Of a stretch of DNA of 64,000 nucleotides, positions 2,077 to 50,003 are shown piece after piece. How positions within the stretch are numbered: position 1 is the first letter of the stretch; every line of letters starts with the position of its first letter. This stretch comes from a virus (Duplodnaviria > Heunggongvirae > Uroviricota > Caudoviricetes). The notes beneath the pieces were generated by a model. That model had not been told where the DNA came from, made no database searches, and worked only from the letters and a program-made list of their open reading frames with translations. Made by a program: the position numbers and the translations under genes. The stretch lies in the IMG/VR virus record IMGVR_UViG_3300021318_000003, positions 27,496-91,495 of that record. One strand, given 5' to 3'.

Positions 2077-2859
2077 CTACTTCCAATAGCAGTACAAACA
2101 GCCGTTGGAACATTGCTTTTTGTGTTTCAGCAGCTCGACCTTGCCGCCATAGCACATACAACCTACTCGCTGGTAGCCTTCTCCGTCGTTCGCGTCGTCC
2201 GGATCGAGGCCGAGGAGCGATAGGTCGTAAGCCGACACGCAGCCGCACGGTATCACGCCGACGTCCTTGTCTGCGTTCAGCATCGGTTCAGCGCAGGCTT
2301 CGATCCTTAGCCCGTCGAACTTCGCGTAGACTCCAAGGTAGAAGAGCTTGCAGGCGCGCACCATGATGTCCACGTTTTTGAAAAGCTCGTCGGGAGCGGT
2401 GAAGCGCCCGTTGTACGGATCGGGAAGTCCGGCGTCTGCAAAACGCTGCCGAACGTGCGGATACATGTCGAGTACGCTGATGCGAAATCGGTCGAATCCG
2501 AGCAGAATCGCCGTTTTGATGATGTTGCACGCGCGGACGACGCCTTTTTCGGTCGGGATGACGGGATCAACGCGGATGACGATTTTCTCTATGGGAAATC
2601 CACAATTCACAAGCGACTTGGTAGCACCAAGCTGATACTCCGCTCGCGGTACGTTCGGCTCTACTACGGTTTTTCCGTAGCCGGTGCAGGTCGCGTGGAC
2701 AATTACCTTATCCTTGTTACGCAGCACGGCGCTTATGAAGTCGCTCGTGACATTCTTCGTAATCAGGATTGCGCCGTCCACCTTTTTGAGCTTCTTTTCC
2801 CAAGAGAGGTCAAGCCCAGCGTCGCCGGCCTCTGTGACGCCAATCTTGTACTTTGCCAT
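2077..2859 (-). CDS. hypothetical protein with C-terminal Cx3Cx2C cysteine cluster
   Basis: 260 aa; C-terminus GCMCYGG...CSNGCLYCYWK (possible Fe-S ligands). Confidence 0.45.
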   Translation of the reverse strand: MAKYKIGVTEAGDAGLDLSWEKKLKKVDGAILITKNVTSDFISAVLRNKDKVIVHATCTGYGKTVVEPNVPRAEYQLGATKSLVNCGFPIEKIVIRVDPVIPTEKGVVRACNIIKTAILLGFDRFRISVLDMYPHVRQRFADAGLPDPYNGRFTAPDELFKNVDIMVRACKLFYLGVYAKFDGLRIEACAEPMLNADKDVGVIPCGCVSAYDLSLLGLDPDDANDGEGYQRVGCMCYGGKVELLKHKKQCSNGCLYCYWK

Positions 2860-7101: not shown

Positions 7102-7476
7102 CTACTCCTTTCCGTTTTTCTTGTGATACCGCTTGACGCGGACGAGCAGCTTGTATTTTTGAGCAGTTTCGATCATGTTCTTTGTGCCTCGGCTCTCGCC
7201 GTCCCAGAACGCGACGAGCGCGTCCGCATTTTGCGCCATCTCCTCGTTGCGCACGATTCCGGCGCGCCGTCCGAGTCCATCCCAGTCGGCGGGGAAGTAG
7301 AGCACCTTGTAACCGTGTTCCTTTGCGTAACGCTCTCCGAGCGTGTCCGCGCCGCGCGCCTTGCCGCAGACAATGACGATTTCGTCGCTGATGTTGGAAA
7401 GCAGGTAATCCACCGTTTTCTTCAGCGCTTCGTAATTATCGAAATCGCGGCCTCCGGCAATGATCAGTCGAAACAT
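7102..7476 (-). CDS. SLOG/DUF2493-like Rossmann-fold protein
   Basis: IIAGGRDFDNYEAL...VIVCGKARGADTLGERYAKEHGYKV...VAFWDGESRGTKNMIE pattern typical of YspA/DprA-like SLOG proteins. Confidence 0.5.
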   Translation of the reverse strand: MFRLIIAGGRDFDNYEALKKTVDYLLSNISDEIVIVCGKARGADTLGERYAKEHGYKVLYFPADWDGLGRRAGIVRNEEMAQNADALVAFWDGESRGTKNMIETAQKYKLLVRVKRYHKKNGKE

Positions 7477-8066: not shown

Positions 8067-8870
8067 TTACAGATATTGCTCGATGTAGTTCCGATCCTGC
8101 GTAAAAATCGGGATTTCGTGGTCGATCTCCCATACGCGGCGCATGACCGTGATCTGCTCGCACGGATTGCGCGGGTTTTCCATATTCTGCTCGCGCGTGT
8201 GCTTGACGCAGCACGAGCCGCGCTTGCAGTCGACCGGAAAATCATTCCAGTTGATGCCTTTTTCGGTGAAGAGCATATCCTGGATCTGGTTGCAGCTCTT
8301 TCCGTGAAGCTCGCGCTGGCTAAAATTCGCCTGACCGACTGCCTCGATGCTGTTGCGCGTCGCGTCCTGCTGACGCCAGATGAGGCAGTTCGCCACCTCG
8401 TCCTTCGGCACGGAGAAGACGCGGGCGTCAAAAAGCGCCTTATATCCCTTGTCGCAATAGCGATAGTAGTCAGCGCCGCTGAGGAGCATCGGATCACAAA
8501 TTACGTTCATAAACGCATTGTTGAACGCGAGCGTTGCCATCGACGCGGCGATGCTGGCCATCTTCTGAACGCCGTAGCCAAACCACGCATCCGTCGTGAT
8601 GGTCGTGTAGTCCGTGAGGACAAGCGTGATCTCATCGGATTGCGTGTAGCCGAGGATGCAGCCCTGCACATTCTCGCAGAGATACTTCATAGTGCGCTGC
8701 ATGGTCTGCATGAGGACGGGATCGAAGGGCTTTTTCATGCCGCGCGTGAAGGTGTGAAACGCTTTGCCGTCCAACCGGATGATGGCCGGTACGCGGCGCG
8801 TCAGATAGAGCTTCGGAACGGCTTCGTACCGCTTCATGCGGTCGCCGAGGCTGTCAGTTTTCTTTGCCAT
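8067..8870 (-). CDS. Thg1-like protein (tRNA-His guanylyltransferase family, 3'-5' nucleotidyltransferase)
   Basis: start at MAKKTDSLGDRMKRYE (GGAAGGAG upstream); RMKRYE...IIRLDGKAFHTFT matches the Thg1/TLP N-terminal signature. Confidence 0.6.
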   Translation of the reverse strand: MAKKTDSLGDRMKRYEAVPKLYLTRRVPAIIRLDGKAFHTFTRGMKKPFDPVLMQTMQRTMKYLCENVQGCILGYTQSDEITLVLTDYTTITTDAWFGYGVQKMASIAASMATLAFNNAFMNVICDPMLLSGADYYRYCDKGYKALFDARVFSVPKDEVANCLIWRQQDATRNSIEAVGQANFSQRELHGKSCNQIQDMLFTEKGINWNDFPVDCKRGSCCVKHTREQNMENPRNPCEQITVMRRVWEIDHEIPIFTQDRNYIEQYL

Positions 8871-15087: not shown

Positions 15088-15653
15088 TCGCACGCCTCCG
15101 CAATCTCGGAAATGTTCCGATACAGCTCCGACCACGTTTTGACGCGCTTCATACCGTGCGCTTTGGCATCGTAAAACTGGTTGTGCGGCCGATGAAAGAG
15201 GAACAGATGCTTGACGCTGTTGGCTGCGGCTTCAAGGTTGTGCGTCCCGTCGTCGATCATCACATCGCCGCGCACGATGCTTTTGTCGCTCGCGATGATG
15301 ATGTCCTCCCATCTGAACACCGGAAACAGCTCCAAAAACCGTTTGATTTTCGCCGGAACCGTCGTCGGATGCGTCGCCGTAACGACACGGACTTTATGAC
15401 CGTCCAGCATGAGACGCTGAATGTACGTTGCCGAGTTTGCAATCGGAAGAATCCGCTGCCAGATACCATCGTCGTGCAGAGGAGCAAAGAGCTGATCGGA
15501 CGTAAGATCGGGGAAGAATCTGGCAATTTCCCAATCGGTGACGTCATGCGGCATGACGTTTGTTCCATAGCGACGGTTCAGCTCCGCGATCCACAGGCCG
15601 CAAAAGTCCCACAGAACATCATCGAGGTCGGTCAAGATCGTGAGCTTTTTCAT
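15084..15653 (-). CDS. 5'(3')-deoxyribonucleotidase (HAD superfamily, NT5C-like)
   Basis: N-terminal DLDDVL HAD motif I; common phage NT5C architecture. Confidence 0.6.
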   Translation of the reverse strand: MKKLTILTDLDDVLWDFCGLWIAELNRRYGTNVMPHDVTDWEIARFFPDLTSDQLFAPLHDDGIWQRILPIANSATYIQRLMLDGHKVRVVTATHPTTVPAKIKRFLELFPVFRWEDIIIASDKSIVRGDVMIDDGTHNLEAAANSVKHLFLFHRPHNQFYDAKAHGMKRVKTWSELYRNISEIAEACE

Positions 15654-16183
15654 ACGATGCCCTCCGCGTAAACCGCGTACTCGATGGCGTGCTTGAGCTG
15701 TTCGAGCGTGCCGCCGTTCGTGATGACCGCATCGTACGGGTAGCCATCGAGCGCCGTCTCGGACGGATGCGCTTTCTGAGCTTCCGTCAAGCCGTTATCA
15801 AAGCCGGGACGCTCCACGCGAATGAGCGTGGCATCGAAGCCGCAGTGCAGGAAAATTTCGTACTCGTTCGGAAAACGGCAGTCGGGGATCAGAACGTAGT
15901 CCCACTCGCCGTTGAAGAACGTGAGCATGGAGACGACGAAATCCACCCAGTAGTCCGGCGACTGCGCGCGCACCTTGTCCGTCCCGACATACTGAAGGAG
16001 CGTTCTGCCGCGCTCATCCTTTTTGCCATCCCAGCCGAAATACTTCTCGGCGACGAACTTCACCGCGTCGCCAAAGTGCGCGATGAGCACGCGCTTGCCC
16101 TGCGCTTCCAGGATCTCCTTCAGAAAGCCCGCCGTCGTGTCCTTGCCGTGCTGCGCCTTGGCGGAAATGCAAACGATTTTCAT
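15650..16183 (-). CDS. P-loop deoxynucleoside monophosphate kinase-like protein
   Basis: Walker A CISAKAQHGKDTTA near the N-terminus, about 177 aa. Confidence 0.55.
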   Translation of the reverse strand: MKIVCISAKAQHGKDTTAGFLKEILEAQGKRVLIAHFGDAVKFVAEKYFGWDGKKDERGRTLLQYVGTDKVRAQSPDYWVDFVVSMLTFFNGEWDYVLIPDCRFPNEYEIFLHCGFDATLIRVERPGFDNGLTEAQKAHPSETALDGYPYDAVITNGGTLEQLKHAIEYAVYAEGIV

Positions 16184-28857: not shown

Positions 28858-29799
28858 TCAGTGCGCGTGACGGTCGCAGTTGTTCAGCACCATGATCTGC
28901 TGCCAGACTTCCTCGCCGAGCAAGCCCTTGAACTTTGCCTCCGTCTTCGGCGGATGGTCGGACTTCGTGACGACGAACGGAGCCATGTGCCAGCGGATCA
29001 ATAGCGCCACCATCAGCGCGTCCTCCGGCGAAAGATCGCCGGTGTAGCAGAAGCTCTCGTATGCGCCGATTCGCTCGTGATTGTAGTAGTGCGCTGTTTC
29101 GCACGGCGCGCCGTGGCTGTCGATGAACGCCTTGGTGCGTTCCTTGCCGATGTCGTGCAGCAGCGCCGCGCGGAGAAGAACGACGTCCGCTTTCGGATAC
29201 TGTTCGACCATATAACCCCACGCCGCCAAGCAGTGCTGCCCGATGGTCAGCGTGTGGTGCGGATTGTCGTGCGCAATGTTGGAGAGTGCGCATAGTTTTT
29301 CGTCGATGCAACCATCGACGTAACCGGGAACACCGTAGACCTCGATCTCGTCCCATCCCTCCGCCATCATCGGGACGTCAAATCTGCGGTACATATCGGC
29401 GATCACGCTCTCCGGCACGACGCGCTCGCGGCTCCGATTGTATGCGAGACACGTTTCATATGGCGTTGCCATGAAAACACAGACCGTTCGCAAATCCGCG
29501 ATATGCAGACCGCGCAGGCGGTGGAGAAAAGAGCGGCGATGCTTGTAGCTGATGTTCGTCGCGTCGTAAACGACATCGTTACCGGCGCGGAGGTCTTCAA
29601 AAACGCGCTTGTGAAGCGTATCGAAAACAAGCTCCTGCTGCGTCTGGTCGTTCTCGTCTCCCAAAACCTCCAGACGGATCGCGTCGCTCGAATGGATACA
29701 GAGTTTCGGCGCAAACGGGAGAGAGTCGTCGATTGAGCGCGCCATCGTCGTCTTGCCGCTTCCAGGCAAACCGACCATCATGTAAAATACCTGCGCCAT
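28858..29799 (-). CDS. polynucleotide-kinase-like P-loop kinase fused to an HD phosphohydrolase domain
   Basis: N-terminal MVGLPGSGKTT (Pnk-type Walker A); C-terminal HD-domain residues (LLHDIGK, H..H). Confidence 0.65.
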   Translation of the reverse strand: MAQVFYMMVGLPGSGKTTMARSIDDSLPFAPKLCIHSSDAIRLEVLGDENDQTQQELVFDTLHKRVFEDLRAGNDVVYDATNISYKHRRSFLHRLRGLHIADLRTVCVFMATPYETCLAYNRSRERVVPESVIADMYRRFDVPMMAEGWDEIEVYGVPGYVDGCIDEKLCALSNIAHDNPHHTLTIGQHCLAAWGYMVEQYPKADVVLLRAALLHDIGKERTKAFIDSHGAPCETAHYYNHERIGAYESFCYTGDLSPEDALMVALLIRWHMAPFVVTKSDHPPKTEAKFKGLLGEEVWQQIMVLNNCDRHAH

Positions 29800-30287
29800 C
29801 AGCTCTTGCTCCCCTCATCATCGCCGCCGTTGTCGAAGTAGTAGCGCGTGTAGACGGGGATATACTTTAGACCGAGCATCCTGGCGACGAGGTAAGCGGA
29901 GTAGCCGTCGACCAACTCGCCGGCGCTGTTGAGCGCGACGCCCGTATGGAAAGCATGATCCTTTTTGTACTCTTCGATGCGCTGTGTGATCTTCTCGGTC
30001 GCGGGAATGGTGTCCTGCATCCGAGCGGGGATCTTGATTCCGTCCATCGGGATGCTGGCATACGCAGCGTCGATCTCGGCGAGCGGGAAATGCGCTCCGT
30101 GGAGCTTGGCGATGTCCGCCGCGCCGTCGCCGGTGATCACGCCGGTCTTGACGATGCCGATTTCCTCGCCGCGCGCGGTCTTGCACATCACGCGCATCCC
30201 GCGCTTGACAACGCCGGTCAGGTGATCGGGGACGGAAAAGCAGTATTCCTTCGGGCTTCCGAAATGCTGGACAAATACGATGTTCAT
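29799..30287 (-). CDS. hypothetical protein
   Basis: start at MNIVFVQ behind an AAGGAG RBS; no motif recognised. Confidence 0.45.
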   Translation of the reverse strand: MNIVFVQHFGSPKEYCFSVPDHLTGVVKRGMRVMCKTARGEEIGIVKTGVITGDGAADIAKLHGAHFPLAEIDAAYASIPMDGIKIPARMQDTIPATEKITQRIEEYKKDHAFHTGVALNSAGELVDGYSAYLVARMLGLKYIPVYTRYYFDNGGDDEGSKS

Positions 30288-30291
30288 GGCG

Positions 30292-31110
30292 TTACTCCTT
30301 TTCGTTTTGAATTTCACTGAGAAAGTTCTTTTTGAACAGGTCGACAAGAGTTGCGTTGAGGATTTCATCAACGCCACGGTCGATTTTCGGCGTGTGGAAA
30401 TCCATATACGAGTCCTTAACGAGCGTCATCCTGCCGACCGCATCATTGGCAAGCACAACGGCCGTGCTCTCGTCCTTCGCTCCGTTCACCTTGACGTCGA
30501 GCAGCCAGTCGGCACGTTTGGAGATCAGGCAGTCCTCGTATGGAACGCCGTCCATCCAGCGATCCATAAATTCCTCCAGACGGAGGATATGATGGAGCTG
30601 CTTGGGATCGTAGCCGAATTTCTTGATCTTATCCATCGTCGCCGGATACGGATGACAGAGAGCTTTCTGCTTTTCGAGCGCCATGCCGACCATGCAGTTG
30701 AGCGCGGCGAAGTCGTTGTAATGGCCGATGCGCTCGCGCGCATCCAGAACCGGCTTGAAAAGCGCCTCGTACTTCGGATTTAGGATGCGGTACTTCGTGA
30801 ACAGGATCTCGACGAAGTTGATATTCTGCTTGCGGAAGCAGTCATACATAAGGCGAATGTCCTTGACGTCAACGTGCTCGTCGTTCTCCATGATGTGCGT
30901 ATAGCTGTGCGGCTTGCGGTTGAGAACGAAGTCCTCGAATGTCGGAAGGACGATGAGTTTGGAGTCGACATCGCTTCCCTCATAGTCCAGCTTGTAATTC
31001 TGCGAGCCTTGCAGGAAAATGCCGACGTATTCGGGATGCTTGTCTTTTACGGCATCGAGGTGTTCGCGCAGCCGCGCCATGATTACGGCATCATGCTCAA
31101 GCTCCGTCAC
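30292..31110 (-). CDS. Pol-beta superfamily nucleotidyltransferase
   Basis: GSQNYKLDYEGSDVDS fits the GS-x10-DxD NTase signature. Confidence 0.55.
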   Translation of the reverse strand: MTELEHDAVIMARLREHLDAVKDKHPEYVGIFLQGSQNYKLDYEGSDVDSKLIVLPTFEDFVLNRKPHSYTHIMENDEHVDVKDIRLMYDCFRKQNINFVEILFTKYRILNPKYEALFKPVLDARERIGHYNDFAALNCMVGMALEKQKALCHPYPATMDKIKKFGYDPKQLHHILRLEEFMDRWMDGVPYEDCLISKRADWLLDVKVNGAKDESTAVVLANDAVGRMTLVKDSYMDFHTPKIDRGVDEILNATLVDLFKKNFLSEIQNEKE

Positions 31111-32546
31111 GATTCCTCACCGCTTTCCGTGACAAGCTCCTGCGCCTCCTCCATGTCCGGCGCGGCGGCGACGTCCTTCGCCAACCCCTCCAGAACCTTA
31201 AAGGAGAAATTCTTGATTTTGTACGCCGCGAACTTCGGGCGATCCACGATGCGGACGACAACGCCCTCGCGAACGTGTGTCTTGCCGACCGGATCAGCGC
31301 CGTCGTAGAATCGCTCTGCAATCTCTTTGATGTATTCACCGGCGCTGCACTCTTCTTCGCGGAAGGTAAGACCATCTTCGTTGGACGAATAACGCTTCGG
31401 CGTTTCCGGAATATATCCCTTCCAAAGAACCGGTACGCACTTGACGCCCATCTGCTTGCAGCGGTAGCGGACGAAATCGGGCGGATACTCCACCACGTCG
31501 CCGTCCTCGTTGGTCATGGTCATGCGGTAGACGTAGAGGTCAGACTGCGGAACGTGGCGCGTCATCACGCCGCCGCCCTCGGCGGGAACCAGCTCGTCGC
31601 GCCCCTTAACGTCGCAGCCGTAAGAGAAGGTCGTCGTTTTTCCGTACTGTCTGGAAAACTCCTTGTCGCCGTTGGCCTGATCGACTTTCTTGTTGTCAAC
31701 GCTCGCCATGATGGGCTTGCCGTCCGTCGTGAAGCCGACGACCTCATAGTAGACCGTCTCGCCCTTGTGCAGCTTGCCCTCGAAAGCCTTGCTGTGCTCC
31801 TCGCGGAAGGTGTTGTTGCCGTACCAGCCGCCCTCGTAGTTTTCCAGAACCGTGCGGCGCGTGCCGGAGACGTAACCCCAGTCGTAGACGGGCGTTCCGT
31901 CGCGGCGCAGGAGCTTGTCGAGAAGCGTGCGCCTGTAGCCTTTGAACGTCGGAAGGTAGCCGGTGCGCTGAGACGTACCGTGCATCTTGAGCGTGATCTC
32001 CACCAGATCGCCCGGATAGAACGCGGAGAGGTTGTAGGCAAGCTGCTCCGTATCGGCGTGCTCGGCGAAGAGCGGCGCGATCGGCGCGCGCTTCTTTCTG
32101 GTGCGGTTGCCTCCGCCGCCAGCGCTTCCGCCGCGACGGTTGACGGCTGGGATGTACTTCTCGCAGATGGTGACGCCGCCGAGCATTGTGATCTGGTCGC
32201 CCTCCTTGAGCTTGGATACGTCCGTGAACTTCGCGAGACTCCGCAGCGGCATGAACAGCCCATCGCTCTTCTCGCCACGCAGCTTGAGCGCCTTGATGTT
32301 GCGCCTGTCGGGATCGAGATAGCCGCCGGCGGGCTTTCCGTTCTCGTCCTTGCGGCGCAGCAGGTCGTTTTCGGTCGCGTATTCCAGGCCGAGCTTTCCG
32401 TCAACGGGGAAGTACACGCCCAGCTCATCCGGCTGCGTCTTCAGATCGACGATGACGGTGTTGCCGAAGCACTCACCACACTGGAGCCGATCCGCGTTGC
32501 TGTGCTTGCGCAGGTTTTCGATTCTCGTGATGTAACCGCAGTACAT
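31107..32546 (-). CDS. ATP-dependent RNA ligase, Rnl2-like
   Basis: ITLKMHGTS resembles the Rnl2 motif I KxHGxN (lysine nucleophile); 479 aa with extra N- and C-terminal domains. Confidence 0.5.
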   Translation of the reverse strand: MYCGYITRIENLRKHSNADRLQCGECFGNTVIVDLKTQPDELGVYFPVDGKLGLEYATENDLLRRKDENGKPAGGYLDPDRRNIKALKLRGEKSDGLFMPLRSLAKFTDVSKLKEGDQITMLGGVTICEKYIPAVNRRGGSAGGGGNRTRKKRAPIAPLFAEHADTEQLAYNLSAFYPGDLVEITLKMHGTSQRTGYLPTFKGYRRTLLDKLLRRDGTPVYDWGYVSGTRRTVLENYEGGWYGNNTFREEHSKAFEGKLHKGETVYYEVVGFTTDGKPIMASVDNKKVDQANGDKEFSRQYGKTTTFSYGCDVKGRDELVPAEGGGVMTRHVPQSDLYVYRMTMTNEDGDVVEYPPDFVRYRCKQMGVKCVPVLWKGYIPETPKRYSSNEDGLTFREEECSAGEYIKEIAERFYDGADPVGKTHVREGVVVRIVDRPKFAAYKIKNFSFKVLEGLAKDVAAAPDMEEAQELVTESGEES

Positions 32547-32554
32547 GATTCCAC

Positions 32555-32584
32555 TCCTTTATAAATTATTGTCTTGCTTATCGA
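32555..32584 (-). promoter_or_regulatory. motif-A element (copy 1 of a tandem pair)
   Basis: ctcctttataaattattgtcttgcttatcg upstream of the Rnl2-like gene. Confidence 0.4.
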
Positions 32585-32586
32585 AA

Positions 32587-32618
32587 AGGCAGAAAGCGCC
32601 GAGAAACACTTTCTGCCT
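32587..32618 (-). other. perfect 10-bp-stem hairpin between tandem motif-A copies
   Basis: aggcagaaag-N12-ctttctgcct. Confidence 0.5.
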
Positions 32619-32623
32619 ACGAT

Positions 32624-32646
32624 TATAAATTATTGTCTTGCTTTTG
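32624..32646 (-). promoter_or_regulatory. motif-A element (copy 2 of the tandem pair)
   Basis: tataaattattgtcttgcttttg immediately downstream of the cysteine desulfurase stop. Confidence 0.4.
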
Positions 32647-33795
32647 TCAAGACATTTTCAGAATTTTTTGCGAAATCTCCGCGATTTTTTCCGCAGCGAC
32701 CACCATGTCCGCCGCGTTTGTGGTAGCGCCGAGGGAAATGCGTACCGTACAGGCCGCTTCTTCCTCCGGCATCCCGATCGCCTTGAGCACATGGGAGATA
32801 CCGGAGCCGGATGAGCACGCCGAGCCTGCGGAAACGCAGACGCCCTCCATATCCAGCCGCAGCAGAAGCGCCTCGCTGTGAACGCCGAAGAGTGTGAGAC
32901 TGATGATGTTGTCGATGTGCGGCGCATCATCGCAGTTGACGCGAAACAGAGCAGAGCCGCGAAGCTGATTGGCAAGGCGGCGCAGGAAGATGTCGCGCAG
33001 CGCTGCGTACTTTTCCATCTGTACGGACAGACTTTTCGTGACGATTTCCGCAGCTATTCCAAGCCCGACGATTGCGGGTACATTCGGTGTTCCGCCGCGC
33101 ATCCCGCGCTCCTGTCCGCCGCCGAAAATCAGAGGATTCTTGTGAATTTTGCTGTCGATATAGAGGAAGCCTGAGCCGAGCGGTGCGCCGAACTTGTGAC
33201 CTGACGCCGAAAGCATATCCACATGGCACTTTTTGACGTCGATCGGCGTATGACCGGCAGCCGCCACCGCATCCGAGTGGAGCGGGATACCATGCGTTTT
33301 GCAAACCGCTCCGATTTTCTCCATCGGATTGATGGTTCCCAGCTCGTTGTTCACCCACATGACGGACGCCGCGCCGATACGATGCGGCATATCGTTGCGA
33401 AGTATCTCAAAATCCAGCCATTTCGGATCAACGCAGCCGTTTTGCGCGATGTCCAGAGCGATGTATGGCACGCCGAACGCGCCGCGTCCATAATGCTCCA
33501 GCGGCTCCGTTACAGAGTGGTGCTCCGCCTTGGTTGTGACGACCGTGCCACATACGTTGGCGAGCCAAGCGTTGTTGGACTCCGTGCCGCCGGAGGTGAA
33601 GAAGATTTCCGAGGCGTCCGCATTTATCATCGCCGCCACCTGCTCACGGGCGCGCTCGATCGCTTTGCTCGCCGCGACGCCCTGCGAATGGATGCTGGAC
33701 GGATTGCCGATGTTTTCCGCGCAGTACCACGGCAGCATCGCCTCCAAAACGCGCGGATCGACCGGCGTGGTCGCCGCGTGGTCAAGATAGATCAT
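32647..33795 (-). CDS. cysteine desulfurase (NifS/IscS-like, class V aminotransferase)
   Basis: PLP-lysine SASGHKFGAPLGSGF and catalytic-Cys loop SAGSACSSGS. Confidence 0.85.
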   Translation of the reverse strand: MIYLDHAATTPVDPRVLEAMLPWYCAENIGNPSSIHSQGVAASKAIERAREQVAAMINADASEIFFTSGGTESNNAWLANVCGTVVTTKAEHHSVTEPLEHYGRGAFGVPYIALDIAQNGCVDPKWLDFEILRNDMPHRIGAASVMWVNNELGTINPMEKIGAVCKTHGIPLHSDAVAAAGHTPIDVKKCHVDMLSASGHKFGAPLGSGFLYIDSKIHKNPLIFGGGQERGMRGGTPNVPAIVGLGIAAEIVTKSLSVQMEKYAALRDIFLRRLANQLRGSALFRVNCDDAPHIDNIISLTLFGVHSEALLLRLDMEGVCVSAGSACSSGSGISHVLKAIGMPEEEAACTVRISLGATTNAADMVVAAEKIAEISQKILKMS

Positions 33796-33797
33796 CG

Positions 33798-34148
33798 TTA
33801 TGCCCTCCTGTTCCAGGCGTCTGCGGCCTGCTTGAAAAGCTGCGCGTCATTTTCAATGTTGTTTCGCGACTCGTTCTCGTTCACATGGCGCAAGACGCGC
33901 GATCCGTAGCAGTGGCAGCTATTGCAGTACAACGATGCGTGATAGATCCGCTCAAAATTGGATTGAGCGGTCTTGACCGAAAACTTAATATTTTTGCTAC
34001 CACAGAACGGGCAAGGATTTAAGCCGTTGCTCGCTCCGCCGATAGTGGACATGAGATCACACTGACCGTTAGAGTCAATGCTGACATACGAATCCGATAC
34101 GCAGTATCCATTTTCATAGTTACTGCAATTTGCGACTTCACATCTCAT
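33798..34148 (-). CDS. Lar-like zinc-ribbon protein (possible restriction alleviation)
   Basis: NPCPFCGSKNIKF...YCNSCHCYG resembles the Lar family. Confidence 0.45.
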   Translation of the reverse strand: MRCEVANCSNYENGYCVSDSYVSIDSNGQCDLMSTIGGASNGLNPCPFCGSKNIKFSVKTAQSNFERIYHASLYCNSCHCYGSRVLRHVNENESRNNIENDAQLFKQAADAWNRRA

Positions 34149-34290
34149 GGATAACTACTCCTTGTTTTGTTTTGCGGACTCACCGGAATTGCACCGGAGC
34201 ACCTGCGTTCTGCACCCACAGGCGTGACGCTTATCCGCGATGTCGTCATATATACCTTAGAAAGGGAGGAACCGCACTATGTCGGCTCGT

Positions 34291-34360
34291 GCTGAGAAGC
34301 GGGACTCGAACCCGCAGACCGCGAATATGGCTCGCTGCCCGTCCTTCGGGCTGTTCCCAG
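34291..34360 (-). tRNA. possible degenerate tRNA-like element (candidate anticodon CAU)
   Basis: clear T-arm GCGGG-TTCGAGT-CCCGC; acceptor CTGGGAA/TTCTCAG with one G-U; D-arm GCCC/GGGC; anticodon stem has an A-G mismatch and C33; no encoded CCA. Confidence 0.3.
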
Positions 34361-34439
34361 CATACTGCCGCACTTACGCGGCTGTAGCGGTCTTTCCCGC
34401 CGTCAAAAGGAGAACCAGTTGCCGTCCACCACAAACGGC

Positions 34440-34528
34440 TGGCGGAAGGGGAGGGGATCGAACCCTCGCGCCGCTTTCGCGACCTAATGACGTAGCAGGT
34501 CATCCTCTTACCACTTGAGTACCCTTCC
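34440..34528 (-). tRNA. tRNA-Ser (anticodon GCU)
   Basis: acceptor GGAAGGG/CCCTTCC plus encoded GCCA; anticodon stem-loop ATGAC-CTGCTAC-GTCAT; long variable arm (type II); T-arm GAGGG-TTCGATC-CCCTC. Confidence 0.75.
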
Positions 34529-34529
34529 A

Positions 34530-34929
34530 TTATAACTGGACGATGTATTTTGAATAATCCGGCACGTTTTTTCCGGCAAATTTGCTCTTGCGCTTCCCAA
34601 GATCCAGAACTGATTTATTCTTGATCTCATCAGTTGGAATCAGATACATTGTTCCATCTCCGCACAAGCAGAAAAGCAGATCGACATTTGTATCTTTAAC
34701 CGTTCTCATCGCTTTTCTTGTTGTGCCGCTGATTGTTCGTAACGAAAGAGCATATACGTCGTTGTAAATAACATTGTTTGTTGCTTTTACTTGGACTCGT
34801 GATAAAACATCATCTTTATCAACAATTAAATCGTACGGTTGTGTATCGTTTAACGGGACAGATACCGTATAGCCATTCGATCCAAAATATGCTATTGCAA
34901 CCGACAAACCAGCATTTCCAATATCGCGT
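34530..34929 (-). CDS. PD-(D/E)XK-type nuclease-like protein
   Basis: PYDLIVDKDDVLSRVQVK fits D-x(n)-D/E-x-K; probable TTG start behind AAGGAG; lies between the RT and tRNA-Ser. Confidence 0.45.
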
Positions 34930-34957
34930 TTTGTATCAAGTTTCAAAAAAACACTCC

Positions 34958-35650
34958 TTAAAACAATGACTCTACATACCGATCCATGTCCGTCACGAGC
35001 TTGTGGCAGTTGCCGTGCAATGCGTGGTTTTTCCACGAGGCGTACTTCTCGTCGAATTTCTCGCGCGTCATTCGACCGTCGCGCACGAGCTTCGCATATT
35101 TGCGAAGACGCCGCTTGATCTGGCGCTTGTTGTCGCCGGTGAGCTTGCGGATGACCTTGCCGTCCTCCGTGAGATAGCTGTGAAAGCCGAGAAAGCGGAC
35201 GCCCTGCCGTATTGGTACGATCTCTGTCTTGCCGTTGAGCGTCAGGCGAAGCTCGGCAAGATACGCCCTAATCTCAGCGAGACATTTTTCCAGGTATTCC
35301 TTGTCTTCCGCGATCAAATAGAAATCGTCCATATATCTCCCGTAATATCGGCAGCCAAGCTCCTCCGTGATGAAATAGAAGCTCAGCAGGCTTTCCGAAA
35401 GACGATCCAATCCGAACAAGGTTCCCTTGCCTGTTTGACCGGCGTAGTTGTCGAGGAGAAAACACTCACGCAGCTTCGGCAGCAACACGCAGTCGCACAG
35501 GCAATGCTGGAGAACCTTGTCGCGGAACGTACCTGACCGGACGATCCTTCGTTTCGGCTCGGAGACGATAAACTCGGTGTACGCGCCAACGCGGTAGGTG
35601 CGCTCCTCCAACTGGCGCTTCATAACGCACAGATTTTCGAGAGCCAGCAC
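34958..35650 (-). CDS. DGR-type reverse transcriptase with internal deletion of motifs 3-4
   Basis: EPKRRIVRSGTFRDKVLQHCL (motifs 1-2), NYAGQTGKGT, RYMDDFY (motif 5), GVRFLGF (motif 7); only about 20 aa between motif 2 and YMDD, where canonical DGR RTs have about 90. Confidence 0.75.
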   Translation of the reverse strand: MLALENLCVMKRQLEERTYRVGAYTEFIVSEPKRRIVRSGTFRDKVLQHCLCDCVLLPKLRECFLLDNYAGQTGKGTLFGLDRLSESLLSFYFITEELGCRYYGRYMDDFYLIAEDKEYLEKCLAEIRAYLAELRLTLNGKTEIVPIRQGVRFLGFHSYLTEDGKVIRKLTGDNKRQIKRRLRKYAKLVRDGRMTREKFDEKYASWKNHALHGNCHKLVTDMDRYVESLF

Positions 35651-35862
35651 ATTGAACCGCTGCGCGCTGCGTTTCTTCCCCTTGCCTTTGCAAGCGACCT
35701 GATACGACCGGAACAGATTTCCAAAATCGACCAGCCTTTCAAAATCGCTTGCGTCATTTGTGTTTGTCCCGCCAGAGGCGAGAGAGGTCGTATGCTCTTT
35801 TGACAGTATGGCGCACTCCTTTTAGCCGCTGAAGCAGCTTATAGACCTCGCTGATCCACCAG

Positions 35863-35942
35863 AACGGGCGAACGTCGTTGCTGTAGTCACAGTCGTTCCA
35901 GTTCAGGATACCATTGGAGTTGACGTAGCAGACGTTGCGAGC
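35863..35942 (-). repeat. DGR template repeat (TR)
   Basis: about 80 nt; matches VR1 and VR2 except at TR adenines on the coding strand; the 3' boundary sequence differs from the VRs (no IMH). Confidence 0.8.
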
Positions 35943-35972
35943 ATCAGCATACAGCCTAAAGGATTCGTCCGG

Positions 35973-36338
35973 TCAGGTCTTCCGCCAAGCGAGCGTCATG
36001 TATTTGACGTCGTGGGCTAAGGAAGTCCACGTTTCGCCCGTCGCAGCGCTGATGAGATGAGCGTGGAGGCTGTATTTCACAAGGCTTAGAAATTTATTGC
36101 AATGGGTGATCGCGCTCGTTTGGTAGTCGAAGCGCTTTTGCCGCTGAGACGGCGAATCGTTGCGGAAGGAATTTGCATCCATCACATCGCTGTGAATGTT
36201 CAGCGCGTACTTCTGGAGCGTATCGGCCAGACGACGAAACTTGACAGGATAGTGTTGCCGGCTCGTCGTCAGGTCGAAGACGCTGAAATACAGAGCTTCC
36301 GCTTTGTCGCCGATGTCAAATTTGACCTCTTCGCTCAT
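35973..36338 (-). CDS. Avd-like accessory variability determinant candidate
   Basis: 121-aa basic ORF sitting exactly between VR1 and TR, as in canonical DGR cassettes; no motif support. Confidence 0.4.
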   Translation of the reverse strand: MSEEVKFDIGDKAEALYFSVFDLTTSRQHYPVKFRRLADTLQKYALNIHSDVMDANSFRNDSPSQRQKRFDYQTSAITHCNKFLSLVKYSLHAHLISAATGETWTSLAHDVKYMTLAWRKT

Positions 36339-36347
36339 CGCCGAGTA

Positions 36348-36959
36348 TCAAGATACGAAGATCGAAGAGTCCAAAACGCAAAACGGGCGAACGCCGTAGC
36401 TGTAGCCACAGCCGTTCCAGCCCAGGATACCACCGGAGTTGACGCAGCAGACGCCGCGAGCGTATCCGGTGCTCTCATCGTGCGTCACTCTGGTAGCCGT
36501 CCACCAGGGCGAACCCATCGCCGGAAGATACTCGCGATAGCGGCGGTAGAGATCGGTCGTGAGAAGGGAAACATGGTCGCGGACGGAGAGCTTTTTGCCC
36601 GTTCCGTCGTCGGCGACGAGCTTGACGGTGTGCTCCACGATGTTGCTTGCGCCGACTGCCTTGGAAAGCTCCTTATAGAAGGTATCGTTGAGATAGCGGC
36701 GCACGTCGCTCTTTGCGTAGTCGCCGCCGCCGGCGTAGTCCATCGTTTTGATGGAATCCTTGGCGAGTACGGCCGTCGTGGTCGCGCTGTGCTCCAGGAC
36801 ATAGAACTCGCGGTCGCCGAGCTTCACGATCTCACCGCACTTGACCTCGCCGAGCGTGCGGCGCGGCTGCTCGGACAGGGTAACGGTGATGTCGCCGTTG
36901 TCGTGCTCCTTGACGTCGACCTTGACGTTGGGAAACTCATTTTTGATCTTGATCTGCAT
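36348..36959 (-). CDS. DGR target protein 1 (C-type-lectin-like variable C-terminus)
   Basis: C-terminus WWTATRVTHDESTGYARGVCCVNSGGILGWNGCGYSYGVRPFCVLDSS; VR1 covers the last about 27 codons. Confidence 0.8.
   Translation of the reverse strand: MQIKIKNEFPNVKVDVKEHDNGDITVTLSEQPRRTLGEVKCGEIVKLGDREFYVLEHSATTTAVLAKDSIKTMDYAGGGDYAKSDVRRYLNDTFYKELSKAVGASNIVEHTVKLVADDGTGKKLSVRDHVSLLTTDLYRRYREYLPAMGSPWWTATRVTHDESTGYARGVCCVNSGGILGWNGCGYSYGVRPFCVLDSSIFVS
36383..36461 (-). repeat. DGR variable repeat VR1
   Basis: TR AAC, AAT, GAC and TAC codons become GGC, GGT, GGC, TGC and TAC here; 11 of 19 TR adenines substituted and no other changes. Confidence 0.8.
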
Positions 36960-49370: not shown

Positions 49371-50003
49371 TTACTCCGCGAGAACCAAGATCGAAGAGTC
49401 AAGAGTCAAAAACGGGCGAACGCCGTAGCCGCAGCCACAGTCGTACCAGCGCAGGACACCACTGGAGCCGACGCAGCAGACGAGGCGAGAATAACCGTTG
49501 CTCGGCGTGGAAGCTGGCGTGATCGTCCACCACCAGTTTTCGTACTCGGGCTGCAAGCCGAGAATTTTGTGGTACTTCGCGTACTCGGCGGCGGTCAGCA
49601 GGCTGATGTAATCCTTGCACTCGCCGTAATCATCGAGGCCATCGAGCGAGGTCAGGTCGCGCTCCATCGCAAGGATGTGCTCGCCGCCGATGATCGCCGC
49701 GATTTTTTTGAGGTATTCGCCGTGCAGCTTCTCGCGGATGGGCGATTCCATCCAATGCGAGCTGTCGCCGAACTCCTCGTCGTTGTAGGCGAAGCCCTCG
49801 GAGATGACGCGCGTGCCGTCGCTCGTGTGCTCCAGAACGATGAACGTCTCATCGCCGATTGGGAAGGTATCGCCAGGAGAGAGGGAAGAGAGCAGAACCT
49901 TGCCAGCATTGCGCAGCGGCTCCAGTGCGGCGGCGTCCGGAACCTCGATGATGACCTTGTTGCCGTCGACGGTGATCTTGCTCTTGTCAAATTCCAACTT
50001 CAT
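49371..50003 (-). CDS. DGR target protein 2 (paralogue of target 1)
   Basis: C-terminus WWWTITPASTPSNGYSRLVCCVGSSGVLRWYDCGCGYGVRPFLTLDSS; shares the F.VLEH(S/T) core with target 1; VR2 at its 3' end. Confidence 0.8.
   Translation of the reverse strand: MKLEFDKSKITVDGNKVIIEVPDAAALEPLRNAGKVLLSSLSPGDTFPIGDETFIVLEHTSDGTRVISEGFAYNDEEFGDSSHWMESPIREKLHGEYLKKIAAIIGGEHILAMERDLTSLDGLDDYGECKDYISLLTAAEYAKYHKILGLQPEYENWWWTITPASTPSNGYSRLVCCVGSSGVLRWYDCGCGYGVRPFLTLDSSILVLAE
49409..49487 (-). repeat. DGR variable repeat VR2 (remote, about 13 kb from TR)
   Basis: differs from TR only at TR-adenine positions (AAC to CTC, GGC, CGC or TAC; GAC to GGC; and so on); IMH-like GATCGAAGAGTC..AAAACGGGCG shared with VR1. 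Confidence 0.8.

Follow-up and report, generated by a model that had tools for sequence, protein, structure and literature searches.

Does a phage-borne block of end-processing genes repair broken RNA, and tRNA in particular? The question is raised by a 64,000-nt stretch of tailed-phage DNA (positions 27,496 to 91,495 of IMG/VR record IMGVR_UViG_3300021318_000003; hereafter the window). Genes for a P-loop kinase fused to an HD domain (Pnk-HD), a Pol-beta-fold nucleotidyltransferase (NTase) and an ATP-dependent RNA ligase lie together there on the minus strand, downstream of a cysteine desulfurase (NifS) gene, a tRNA-Ser(GCU) gene and a tRNA-like element. RNA-repair operons are thought to counter tRNA-cleaving host defences, and few have been characterised beyond T4. 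An initial annotation of the window had proposed that the block, joined by a separately encoded Thg1-like enzyme, repairs tRNAs cut by host anticodon nucleases.

We consider it likely that the three genes belong to a phage operon for RNA break repair, in which ends are healed, extended and sealed, most probably to restore host or phage tRNAs cut by host ribotoxins. This reading draws on the domain identities and active sites of the encoded proteins, their overlapping open reading frames (ORFs), a 12/12 promoter match, the co-occurrence of the genes in related phages, characterised precedents, and the tRNA genes upstream. The E-values of the underlying sequence matches, and the conservation over hundreds to thousands of homologs, are far beyond chance.

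Operon structure and promoter

The gene order is ligase, NTase, a 163-aa ORF and Pnk-HD, and successive ORFs overlap by 1–4 nt at their stop and start codons. All ORFs named in the initial annotation were found again with the same coordinates and on the same strand; its gene list lacked the 163-aa ORF and a Lar-like ORF upstream of NifS (33798–34148). Gene content and conserved motifs support its description of a co-oriented healing-and-sealing toolkit.

A perfect sigma-70-type promoter, sharing sequence with the NifS stop codon, is found ~75 nt before the ligase ATG (Table 1) and is the sole 12/12 match in the 6.5 kb from 28500 to 35000. In the closest relative, L103, the element reads TTGACT-17-TATAAT. 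With a consensus sigma-70 promoter of its own, the operon could be expressed by the host RNA polymerase. The hairpin GGCAGAAAG...CTTTCTGCC, followed by TTTT, lies between this promoter and the ligase ribosome-binding site. It is kept in L103 with a compensatory C:G to T:A change and is absent in more distant relatives, where the NifS–ligase spacer is only ~45 nt; possible roles are those of leader, attenuator or terminator for the unit upstream. Two copies of the 21-nt sequence AAGCAAGACAATAATTTATAA flank the hairpin (window 32560–32650, minus strand), an arrangement partly conserved in L103. The perfect promoter has its spacer and –10 element in the first copy; a weaker promoter-like element (TTTCGA-17-TATAAA), just before the ribosome-binding site, comes from the second.

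The 163-aa ORF has no Pfam, NCBIfam or PDB match. Its sole match (phrog_26377, ParB-like, 6e-4) is weak, and no search returned anything informative. The ORF occupies this position only in the closest relatives, L103 and L104 (61% identity), and a 39% homolog lies ~0.75 kb upstream of the Thg1-like gene in L007 and L111. It is a lineage-specific insertion in the cassette.

Predicted kinase-HD healing protein

Pfam AAA_33 (1.3e-19, residues 7–143) and HD (6.8e-6, residues 188–278; 26.8 bits against a threshold of 22) cover the two halves of the 313-aa Pnk-HD protein, in line with the fusion of a GLPGSGKTT kinase to an HD domain described in the initial annotation, and HDIG (TIGR00277) passes its cutoff of 27.6 bits with 28.0. 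Among solved structures, the kinase half finds its best homolog in the kinase domain of Clostridium thermocellum Pnkp (4e-10), and the protein matches phrog_505, polynucleotide kinase (2e-16). In 25 homologs with 44–75% identity there is little or no variation at the kinase residues G10-x4-G15-K16-T17, D39 (the general-base Asp), R42, D79, and R124 and R126 (the lid arginines). The HD residues H189, H215-D216, H241, H271 and D309, whose absence would have spoken against a phosphohydrolase, are invariant in the same set. A deoxynucleoside monophosphate (dNMP) kinase identity was considered and rejected, the best matches being polynucleotide kinases and PSTK-type RNA kinases; a separate dNMP kinase gene is present at 15650–16183.

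The kinase half (residues 1–159) matches positions 185–339 of phrog_6931 and the HD half (160–313) matches positions 49–123. The matches come in swapped order, so Pnk-HD is a permuted variant of phage HD-Pnk. Its family is uniform, with proteins of ~300 aa and 1,402 cluster representatives at E ≤ 1e-5. T4 Pnkp carries a phosphatase of the HAD type, in place of the HD domain seen here.

The initial annotation had regarded the fusion of a kinase to an HD domain as unusual. This was not borne out, since HD-Pnk proteins of Runella slithyformis and Deinococcus radiodurans have already been characterised; only the domain order differs, and that order may itself have been catalogued earlier. The Runella enzyme is a bifunctional 2′,3′-phosphoesterase/5′-kinase whose gene lies directly downstream of, and overlaps, an ATP-dependent ligase gene. 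The window protein likewise joins an HD phosphoesterase to a P-loop 5′-OH kinase, downstream of an ATP-dependent ligase gene. Here, however, the kinase is N-terminal and the HD domain C-terminal, and two ORFs, one of them encoding the RlaP-like NTase, separate the ligase from the healing gene. Unlike the HD-Pnk operons, the scanned ORFs contained no detectable Tpt1 or MTase-HIT genes, and the setting is a phage and not a bacterial chromosome.

RNA ligase

The 479-aa ligase matches phrog_968, 'RNA ligase' (3.4e-63). It has an N-terminal OB domain (about residues 1–130), a Gly/Arg-rich linker (135–171) modelled with low confidence, and an NTase domain with motifs I (K187-MHGTS), III (E268), IIIa (Y338-VYRM), IV (E427-GVVVR) and V (K443-I-K445). 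These motifs do not vary among 26 homologs, residues K187, E268, E427 and K443/K445 included. Beyond motif V there is a ~35-aa acidic tail (pLDDT <50) with one short helix, and no C-terminal domain.

The KMHGTS motif reported in the initial annotation is present, and its assignment of the protein to the Rnl2 type rested solely on the KxHG form of this motif. The T4 Rnl2 motif is KIHG, which KMHG resembles, and the DraRnl and NgrRnl motifs are KxDG. The Rnl2 identity was nevertheless ruled out by the absent C-terminal domain and by the best full-length fold match, which is of the Rnl5 type. Foldseek of the ligase model gave Naegleria NgrRnl as this match (E 4e-12), with 13 NgrRnl PDB entries covering both domains as the best fold matches (E about 1e-11). 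T4 Rnl2 (E 3e-4) and the trypanosome editing ligase REL1 (E 8e-4) matched the NTase core only. Profile alignment placed residues 12–126 onto NgrRnl 16–121, and the motif IIIa region onto T4 Rnl2 residues 106–164 (profile E 0.09–0.17). Searches of PDB sequences with the single sequence or with a profile found no significant match.

Rnl5 ligases are defined by an N-terminal domain and no C-terminal appendage to the NTase domain. The window ligase shares with DraRnl and NgrRnl this order of an OB-type domain and an NTase domain. It is ~140 aa longer than NgrRnl (479 vs. 339–340) and has, besides the disordered Gly/Arg linker, insertions within its NTase domain. Pfam RNA_ligase, which the initial annotation named as a check, is found by E-value (2.7e-5) but at 24.8 bits falls under the gathering score of 27. 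The same holds for the PHA02142 OB profile (residues 6–101, 9e-4; 20.1 bits, gathering score 27), and the DRB0094-type TIGR02306 scores 35.6 bits (residues 8–197, 4.7e-9) against a cutoff of 151. A canonical 386-aa Rnl5 that passes Pfam occupies the same cassette slot in a 325-kb relative. Both ligases fall in phrog_968, and the identity of the window ligase to canonical phage Rnl5 (~25%) is confined to the OB domain. Because it stays below the curated thresholds, we file the window protein as Rnl5-like; its sequence and predicted fold place it in a divergent clade and not among the canonical members.

Nucleotidyltransferase

The GS-x10-DxD signature noted in the initial annotation was confirmed, and the assignment can be narrowed to RlaP-like. 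Catalytic residues G35-S36, D47-x-D49 and D84 are invariant in 29 homologs. Ten of these homologs, 55–76% identical to the window protein, match PF10127 RlaP (best 4.3e-7). The window NTase itself has no PF10127 match at E ≤ 1 and no Pfam match at all; it matches phrog_388, nucleotidyltransferase (2.1e-9). Other gene calls start the protein at an ATG 10 codons downstream (262 aa).

The AlphaFold2 model (pLDDT 94.9) contains an N-terminal helix, the NTase sheet, a helical domain and a long terminal helix. This predicted layout is consistent with the published description of RlaP, in which the last helix packs back on the N-terminal helices. Among viral folds the closest are those of phage NTases (Bacillus phage BCD7, TM-score 0.78, E 1.8e-15), followed at lower rank by a T4-like phage NTase and baculovirus HE65. 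In a PDB set without the PfRlaP structure, the best fold was the kanamycin NTase ANT(4′) (TM-score 0.43), and neither single-sequence nor profile searches of that set gave a significant match. An antibiotic-NTase identity was rejected, given the low ANT(4′) score, the higher score of the phage NTases and the RlaP matches of the relatives. Sequence and model together suggest a divergent RlaP relative below the family threshold.

A December 2025 preprint reports that RlaP adds one or two nucleoside monophosphates (NMPs) to the 3′-OH of RNA, not DNA, with a preference for Mn2+, and that it allows a tRNA missing one nucleotide of its anticodon loop to be aminoacylated again. RlaP is proposed there as an antidote to nucleotide-excising ribotoxins such as RloC. 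As an RlaP-like enzyme, the window NTase would accordingly be expected to add nucleotides to RNA 3′-OH ends. Like the Pseudomonas enzymes PfRlaP and PaRlaP of RtcB operons, it joins a Pol-beta NTase domain to a C-terminal helical domain, is encoded beside an RNA ligase gene, and has close homologs that match PF10127. Unlike them, it has no PF10127 score of its own, and its partner is a 5′-phosphate ATP-dependent ligase and not RtcB. The preprint authors point out an end-chemistry conflict between RlaP and RtcB; pairing with a 5′-phosphate ligase would avoid it.

Thg1-like protein

The Thg1-like gene was correctly recognised in the initial annotation as part of the same functional theme. Its product matches Pfam Thg1 (1.1e-28, 100.2 bits against 29.2), phrog_4717 (4e-95) and the Bacillus thuringiensis Thg1-like protein (TLP; PDB 4kgk, 2.4e-67, residues 6–266), with the catalytic carboxylate motifs RLDGKAFH and QSDEI conserved. 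Unlike the B. thuringiensis protein, it is phage-encoded and carries a ~25-residue insertion, and its gene lies apart from the operon in the window. The TLP class repairs 5′-truncated tRNAs by templated 3′-5′ addition. A YAcAr/SLOG-family protein is encoded ~0.6 kb downstream of the Thg1-like gene (7102–7476, minus strand), and a DUF1848 protein further downstream (2077–2859, minus strand).

The cassette in related phages

Related loci carry numbers with the prefix L. The survey covered 80 IMG/VR viral loci retrieved with a Pnk-HD profile at 40–75% identity. The ligase, NTase and Pnk-HD genes occur together in most of them (~60/80), the ligase being either of the window type or a canonical Rnl5. 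The NTase gene lies within 10 kb of Pnk-HD in ~68 of the 80 loci, and a Thg1-like gene within the same distance in 12.

About 41 of the loci also encode a DUF2828/DUF7788 protein (phrog_850, 'RNA-binding protein') with weak similarity to Ro60-vWA (E 0.009). In related phages its gene often directly precedes NifS or else follows Pnk-HD, close to the Thg1-like gene (L019:5184–6743, L023:2590–4146, L024:3884–5362 and about 40 of L103–L182); the window has no copy. The Thg1-like and Ro60-like genes join the core in variable combinations and orders. Comparative surveys of jumbo phages list ligase, Pnk, phosphoesterase (occasionally HD), RlaP, Thg1 and a ROT/TROVE protein, and the recurrent, variable association seen here matches this known RNA-repair repertoire.

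Cysteine desulfurase

NifS is a type I desulfurase by its matches to Aminotran_5 (3.7e-66, 224 bits) and PDB 9wep (3e-72). It matches TIGR03402 (1.4e-105) below the curated cutoff and is likewise under the equivalog cutoffs for IscS and DndA. Seven phage homologs share the active-site segments S198-G-H-K201 and G324-S-A-C327, with Lys201 and Cys327 intact. The scanned window ORFs contain no ThiI, MnmA, TusA, IscU, thiouridylase or Dnd partner. A role as DndA/SspA in DNA phosphorothioation was rejected, as the DndA match (2e-87) is under its cutoff and no Dnd/Ssp partners are found among the scanned ORFs.

tRNA-Ser and the tRNA-like element

ARAGORN and Rfam agree on the tRNA-Ser(GCU) gene that the initial annotation had placed upstream, and ARAGORN finds it in 14 of 16 relatives scanned. 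The second element, which it had called degenerate, fairly deserves that description: it has a cloverleaf and a canonical T-arm, with A at position 8 and with C replacing the U of position 33, and its score is too low for the Rfam tRNA model, its best match being tRNA-Sec (23.4 bits, gathering score 47). The minimum-free-energy fold is a cloverleaf (z = –2.1). The homolog in L103 is called tRNA-Thr(AGT), with a different anticodon loop (CAU vs. AGU).

The region holding the ~80-nt spacer between tRNA-Ser and this element was compared in the window (34262–34442, minus strand), L103:3182–3350 and L017:1415–1560. The spacer is conserved among relatives, including L017, which has no tRNA-like part, and a hairpin, GCCGC-GUAAGU-GCGGC, lies within it. 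Pairing of the flanks around the tRNA-like cloverleaf is predicted for the window. The element could be a decoy or a Y-RNA-like RNA; identity as a Y RNA proper (YrlA) was rejected (12.7 bits, gathering score 69).

Proposed mechanism

In the order of events that we propose, a metal-independent host RNase would leave 2′,3′-cyclic-phosphate (or 3′-phosphate) and 5′-OH ends. The HD domain of Pnk-HD would strip the cyclic or 3′ phosphate to give a 3′-OH, and its P-loop kinase would phosphorylate the 5′-OH. Where nucleotides had been excised, the RlaP-like NTase would add one or two NMPs to the 3′-OH. The Rnl5-like ligase, adenylylated on Lys187, would then join the 3′-OH to the 5′-PO4. The separately encoded Thg1-like protein would rebuild 5′-truncated acceptor stems by templated 3′-5′ addition. 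Gene content, domain architecture, conserved catalytic residues, operon layout and repeated co-occurrence are observed directly; each enzymatic activity is predicted by homology, and the RNA or tRNA substrate and the role in counter-defence are inferred. The presumed adversaries would be anticodon nucleases of the PrrC/RloC type.

Alternative explanations

Several points weigh against such a role. The window ligase and NTase both score under the curated Pfam and NCBIfam family thresholds, and the AlphaFold2 model of the ligase is of moderate confidence only (pLDDT 64). Characterised Rnl5 enzymes seal duplex nicks and not single-stranded loop breaks, so the anticodon loop is not an obvious substrate. 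Neither Rnl5 nor the HD-Pnk/ligase operons have an established natural substrate, and the Runella ligase sealed none of the substrates tested. The HD-Pnk of D. radiodurans is reported to aid survival of DNA damage, namely resistance to mitomycin C and to ionizing radiation. The cassette itself sits inside a DNA replication, recombination and methylation module, between DNA methyltransferase genes and those for ERF, SSB, primase-helicase and Pol III alpha.

Part of this evidence would fit a cassette that mends nicks for replication or DNA repair in place of tRNA. Pnk-HD would then heal 3′-phosphate/5′-OH breaks in DNA or RNA–DNA that arise from damage or host nucleases, and the ligase would seal nicks with a ribonucleotide 3′-OH end, the ribo-patch being laid down by a polymerase or the NTase. 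Rnl5 requires a duplex nick with an RNA 3′-OH strand and tolerates DNA on the 5′-PO4 side, a ribo-patch role in DNA repair has been proposed for it in the literature, and the title of the Runella report calls HD-Pnk a 'DNA/RNA end-healing enzyme'. We nonetheless regard nick repair as unlikely, because characterised RlaP does not use DNA 3′ ends, because Thg1-like, Ro60-like and tRNA genes accompany the cassette, and because the ligase model has an OB domain with further similarity to the tRNA-binding Trbp111/EMAPII/PheRS-B2 folds (Foldseek ranks 25–44). The tRNA genes invite another explanation, that the operon matures or remodels phage RNAs, for instance by processing or joining the tRNA-Ser and tRNA-like transcripts, with no damage involved. 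The two elements and their conserved spacer lie ~2 kb upstream of the cassette, and tRNA genes precede it in many relatives. Yet ARAGORN and Rfam detected no intron or split tRNA and show tRNA-Ser to be intact, L001 and L022 have the cassette but no tRNA gene, in loci that extend only 5–8 kb upstream of Pnk-HD, and we know of no precedent in bacteria or phages for a maturation role of such an operon. A maturation role is thus very unlikely.

As a fifth component, NifS would supply sulfur through host MnmA or ThiI, so that a repaired tRNA is re-thiolated after replacement of its wobble nucleotide. The gene lies directly upstream of the ligase in ~33 of the 80 Pnk-HD loci, including a divergent sub-lineage (L177/179/181) in which a 38%-identical NifS precedes a canonical Rnl5. 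In many relatives it stands between the Ro60-like gene and the ligase, at the ~45-nt spacing mentioned above, and its active site is intact. A reciprocal survey of 80 viral loci centred on NifS gave a different picture and excluded NifS as an obligate member of the cassette: ~45 of these loci have no cassette gene within 8 kb, and in 5 that lack the cassette NifS still precedes ERF-SSB-primase, which looks as though the cassette had been inserted next to a gene of the backbone. Both are present but far apart in several phages (~45 kb in a measured example, contig 3300029305_011225, L137 vs. L224), and the neighbours of such a distant NifS are NAD-salvage genes, UvrD and FolD. In the window, NifS is set apart from the ligase by the promoter and a terminator-like hairpin, the scanned ORFs include no thiouridylase, TusA or IscU partner, and the phage NrdD/NrdG-like pair offers NifS an adequate alternative role in iron–sulfur (Fe-S) supply. 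A fifth component is therefore quite unlikely: the initial annotation was right that NifS adjoins the block, and membership of the gene in the system is not supported. NifS is probably a neighbour and an auxiliary sulfur/Fe-S gene, and not a repair component. Decidedly improbable, too, is a complete pathway against nucleotide-excising ('smart') anticodon nucleases such as RloC, in which Pnk-HD would heal, the NTase re-add the wobble nucleotide, the ligase seal, NifS feed sulfur to host thiouridylases so that the 2-thio modification returns, and the tRNA-like RNA act as a decoy or Y-RNA-like cofactor. If true, it would be the first repair system to restore both the sequence and the modification of an RNA. 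RNA break repair by healing, extension and sealing, directed most likely at cleaved tRNAs, is the reading that we retain.

Genome context, hosts and neighbouring elements

The window is clearly phage DNA, with nearly all coding on the minus strand. Its genes specify a Pol III-alpha-type DNA polymerase (phrog_405, 4e-228), a primase-helicase, an NrdD-type reductase with an NrdG-like Fe-S-dependent protein beside it, ERF, SSB, a PD-(D/E)XK nuclease, dUTPase, dNMP kinase, 5′-nucleotidase and several DNA methyltransferases. At least 18 metagenomic contigs, the longest of 130 kb, carry the same Pnk-HD protein. The INPHARED phage collection holds no DNA near-identical to the window, tRNA-Ser excepted. 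Full-length Pnk-HD is rare in cellular assemblies (n = 7); the best is in an Oscillospiraceae genome (60% identity, L023), and the others are in metagenome-assembled genomes of Clostridia, Bacillota and Bacteroidales. Taken together, these copies suggest Clostridia-type gut hosts. The cassette is carried by large gut phages with probable Clostridia-like hosts, a group that is uncultured and very abundant. At least 1,400 cluster representatives were found for Pnk-HD, at least 4,500 for the NTase and at least 8,000 for the ligase.

Coordinates are collected in Table 1.

Table 1. Positions of the operon and of the other annotated elements in the 64-kb window
Feature	Position	Strand	Remarks
Pnk-HD, predicted bifunctional end-healing enzyme	28858..29799	-	313 aa; P-loop kinase N-terminal, HD C-terminal
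163-aa ORF	29799..30290	-	weak ParB-like C-terminal half; ends overlap both neighbours
Putative NTase, Pol-beta-fold, divergent RlaP-like	30292..31110	-	272 aa; N-terminal NTase and C-terminal helical domain
Predicted RNA ligase, ATP-dependent, Rnl5-like	31107..32546	-	479 aa; phrog_968, fold and motifs
Hairpin followed by TTTT	32588..32617	-	between promoter and ligase ribosome-binding site
Sigma-70-type promoter, perfect	32622..32650	-	TTGACA-17-TATAAT
Type I (NifS/IscS-like) cysteine desulfurase	32647..33795	-	adjoins operon upstream
tRNA-like element, atypical	34289..34361	-	ARAGORN tRNA-Met(CAT)
tRNA-Ser(GCU)	34440..34528	-	ARAGORN; Rfam tRNA 55.8 bits
Thg1-like protein, bacterial TLP type, predicted 3′-5′ nucleotidyltransferase	8067..8870	-	~20 kb from operon
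Retroelement reverse transcriptase ORF	34958-35650	-	phrog_1423, 2e-61
Retroelement template repeat	about 35850-35950	-	mismatches to target 3′ end almost all at template adenines (AA->GG, A->G, A->T)
Retroelement accessory ORF	35973-36338	-	
Retroelement target gene, DUF6273-type	36348-36959	-	variable repeat about 36381-36461

The tRNAs are closely preceded by a diversity-generating retroelement (34958–36959, minus strand), and a paralog resembling its target gene is found at 49371–50003. Its reverse transcriptase ORF is just 230 aa long and overlaps the next ORF (34530–35036); it may be truncated or frameshifted.

Among the methyltransferases, a C5-cytosine enzyme is apparently split into at least three ORFs (26244–26885, 27423–28004 and 27904–28248, minus strand). 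On other contigs of the same phage it is fragmented differently, with one form of 310 aa, which suggests frameshift variation, assembly differences or an intervening element. In a Bacteroidales-binned relative (L024:11941–15534) the primase-helicase is matched as three separated pieces, suggesting inteins or introns, and the Pol III alpha gene of L019 contains an intein (Hint_2/Intein_splicing). In L224 (4389–6637 and 10203–12866), NifS lies beside NAPRTase/NAMPT and NAD synthase genes, with an 887-aa protein nearby that matches the eukaryotic-type RNA-dependent RNA polymerase Pfam family (1.2e-13).

Discussion

The components of the operon have known counterparts in T4 Pnkp/Rnl1, HD-Pnk and ligase operons, RlaP-linked ligases and phage Thg1, and no new principle is involved. 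Like the anti-PrrC system of T4, the window combines a phage 5′-kinase/3′-phosphatase with an ATP-dependent RNA ligase, and the T4 genome also encodes an RlaP-family NTase, NrdC.11. Unlike T4, it has an Rnl5-like ligase of nick-sealing architecture in place of Rnl1, and the genes form one operon. Judged from sequence, its distinguishing features are the permuted Pnk-HD, the strongly diverged and enlarged Rnl5-like ligase, and the RlaP-like enzyme below the family threshold. By their homologs, all three divergent proteins belong to highly abundant, uncharacterised gut-phage families.

An RlaP-type enzyme together with a 5′-phosphate ligase is a combination in which the 3′-OH product of RlaP can be ligated directly. 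The cassette thus offers a clean system for the model in which RlaP repairs excised nucleotides, for the natural substrate of Rnl5 and for the effect of HD/kinase order.

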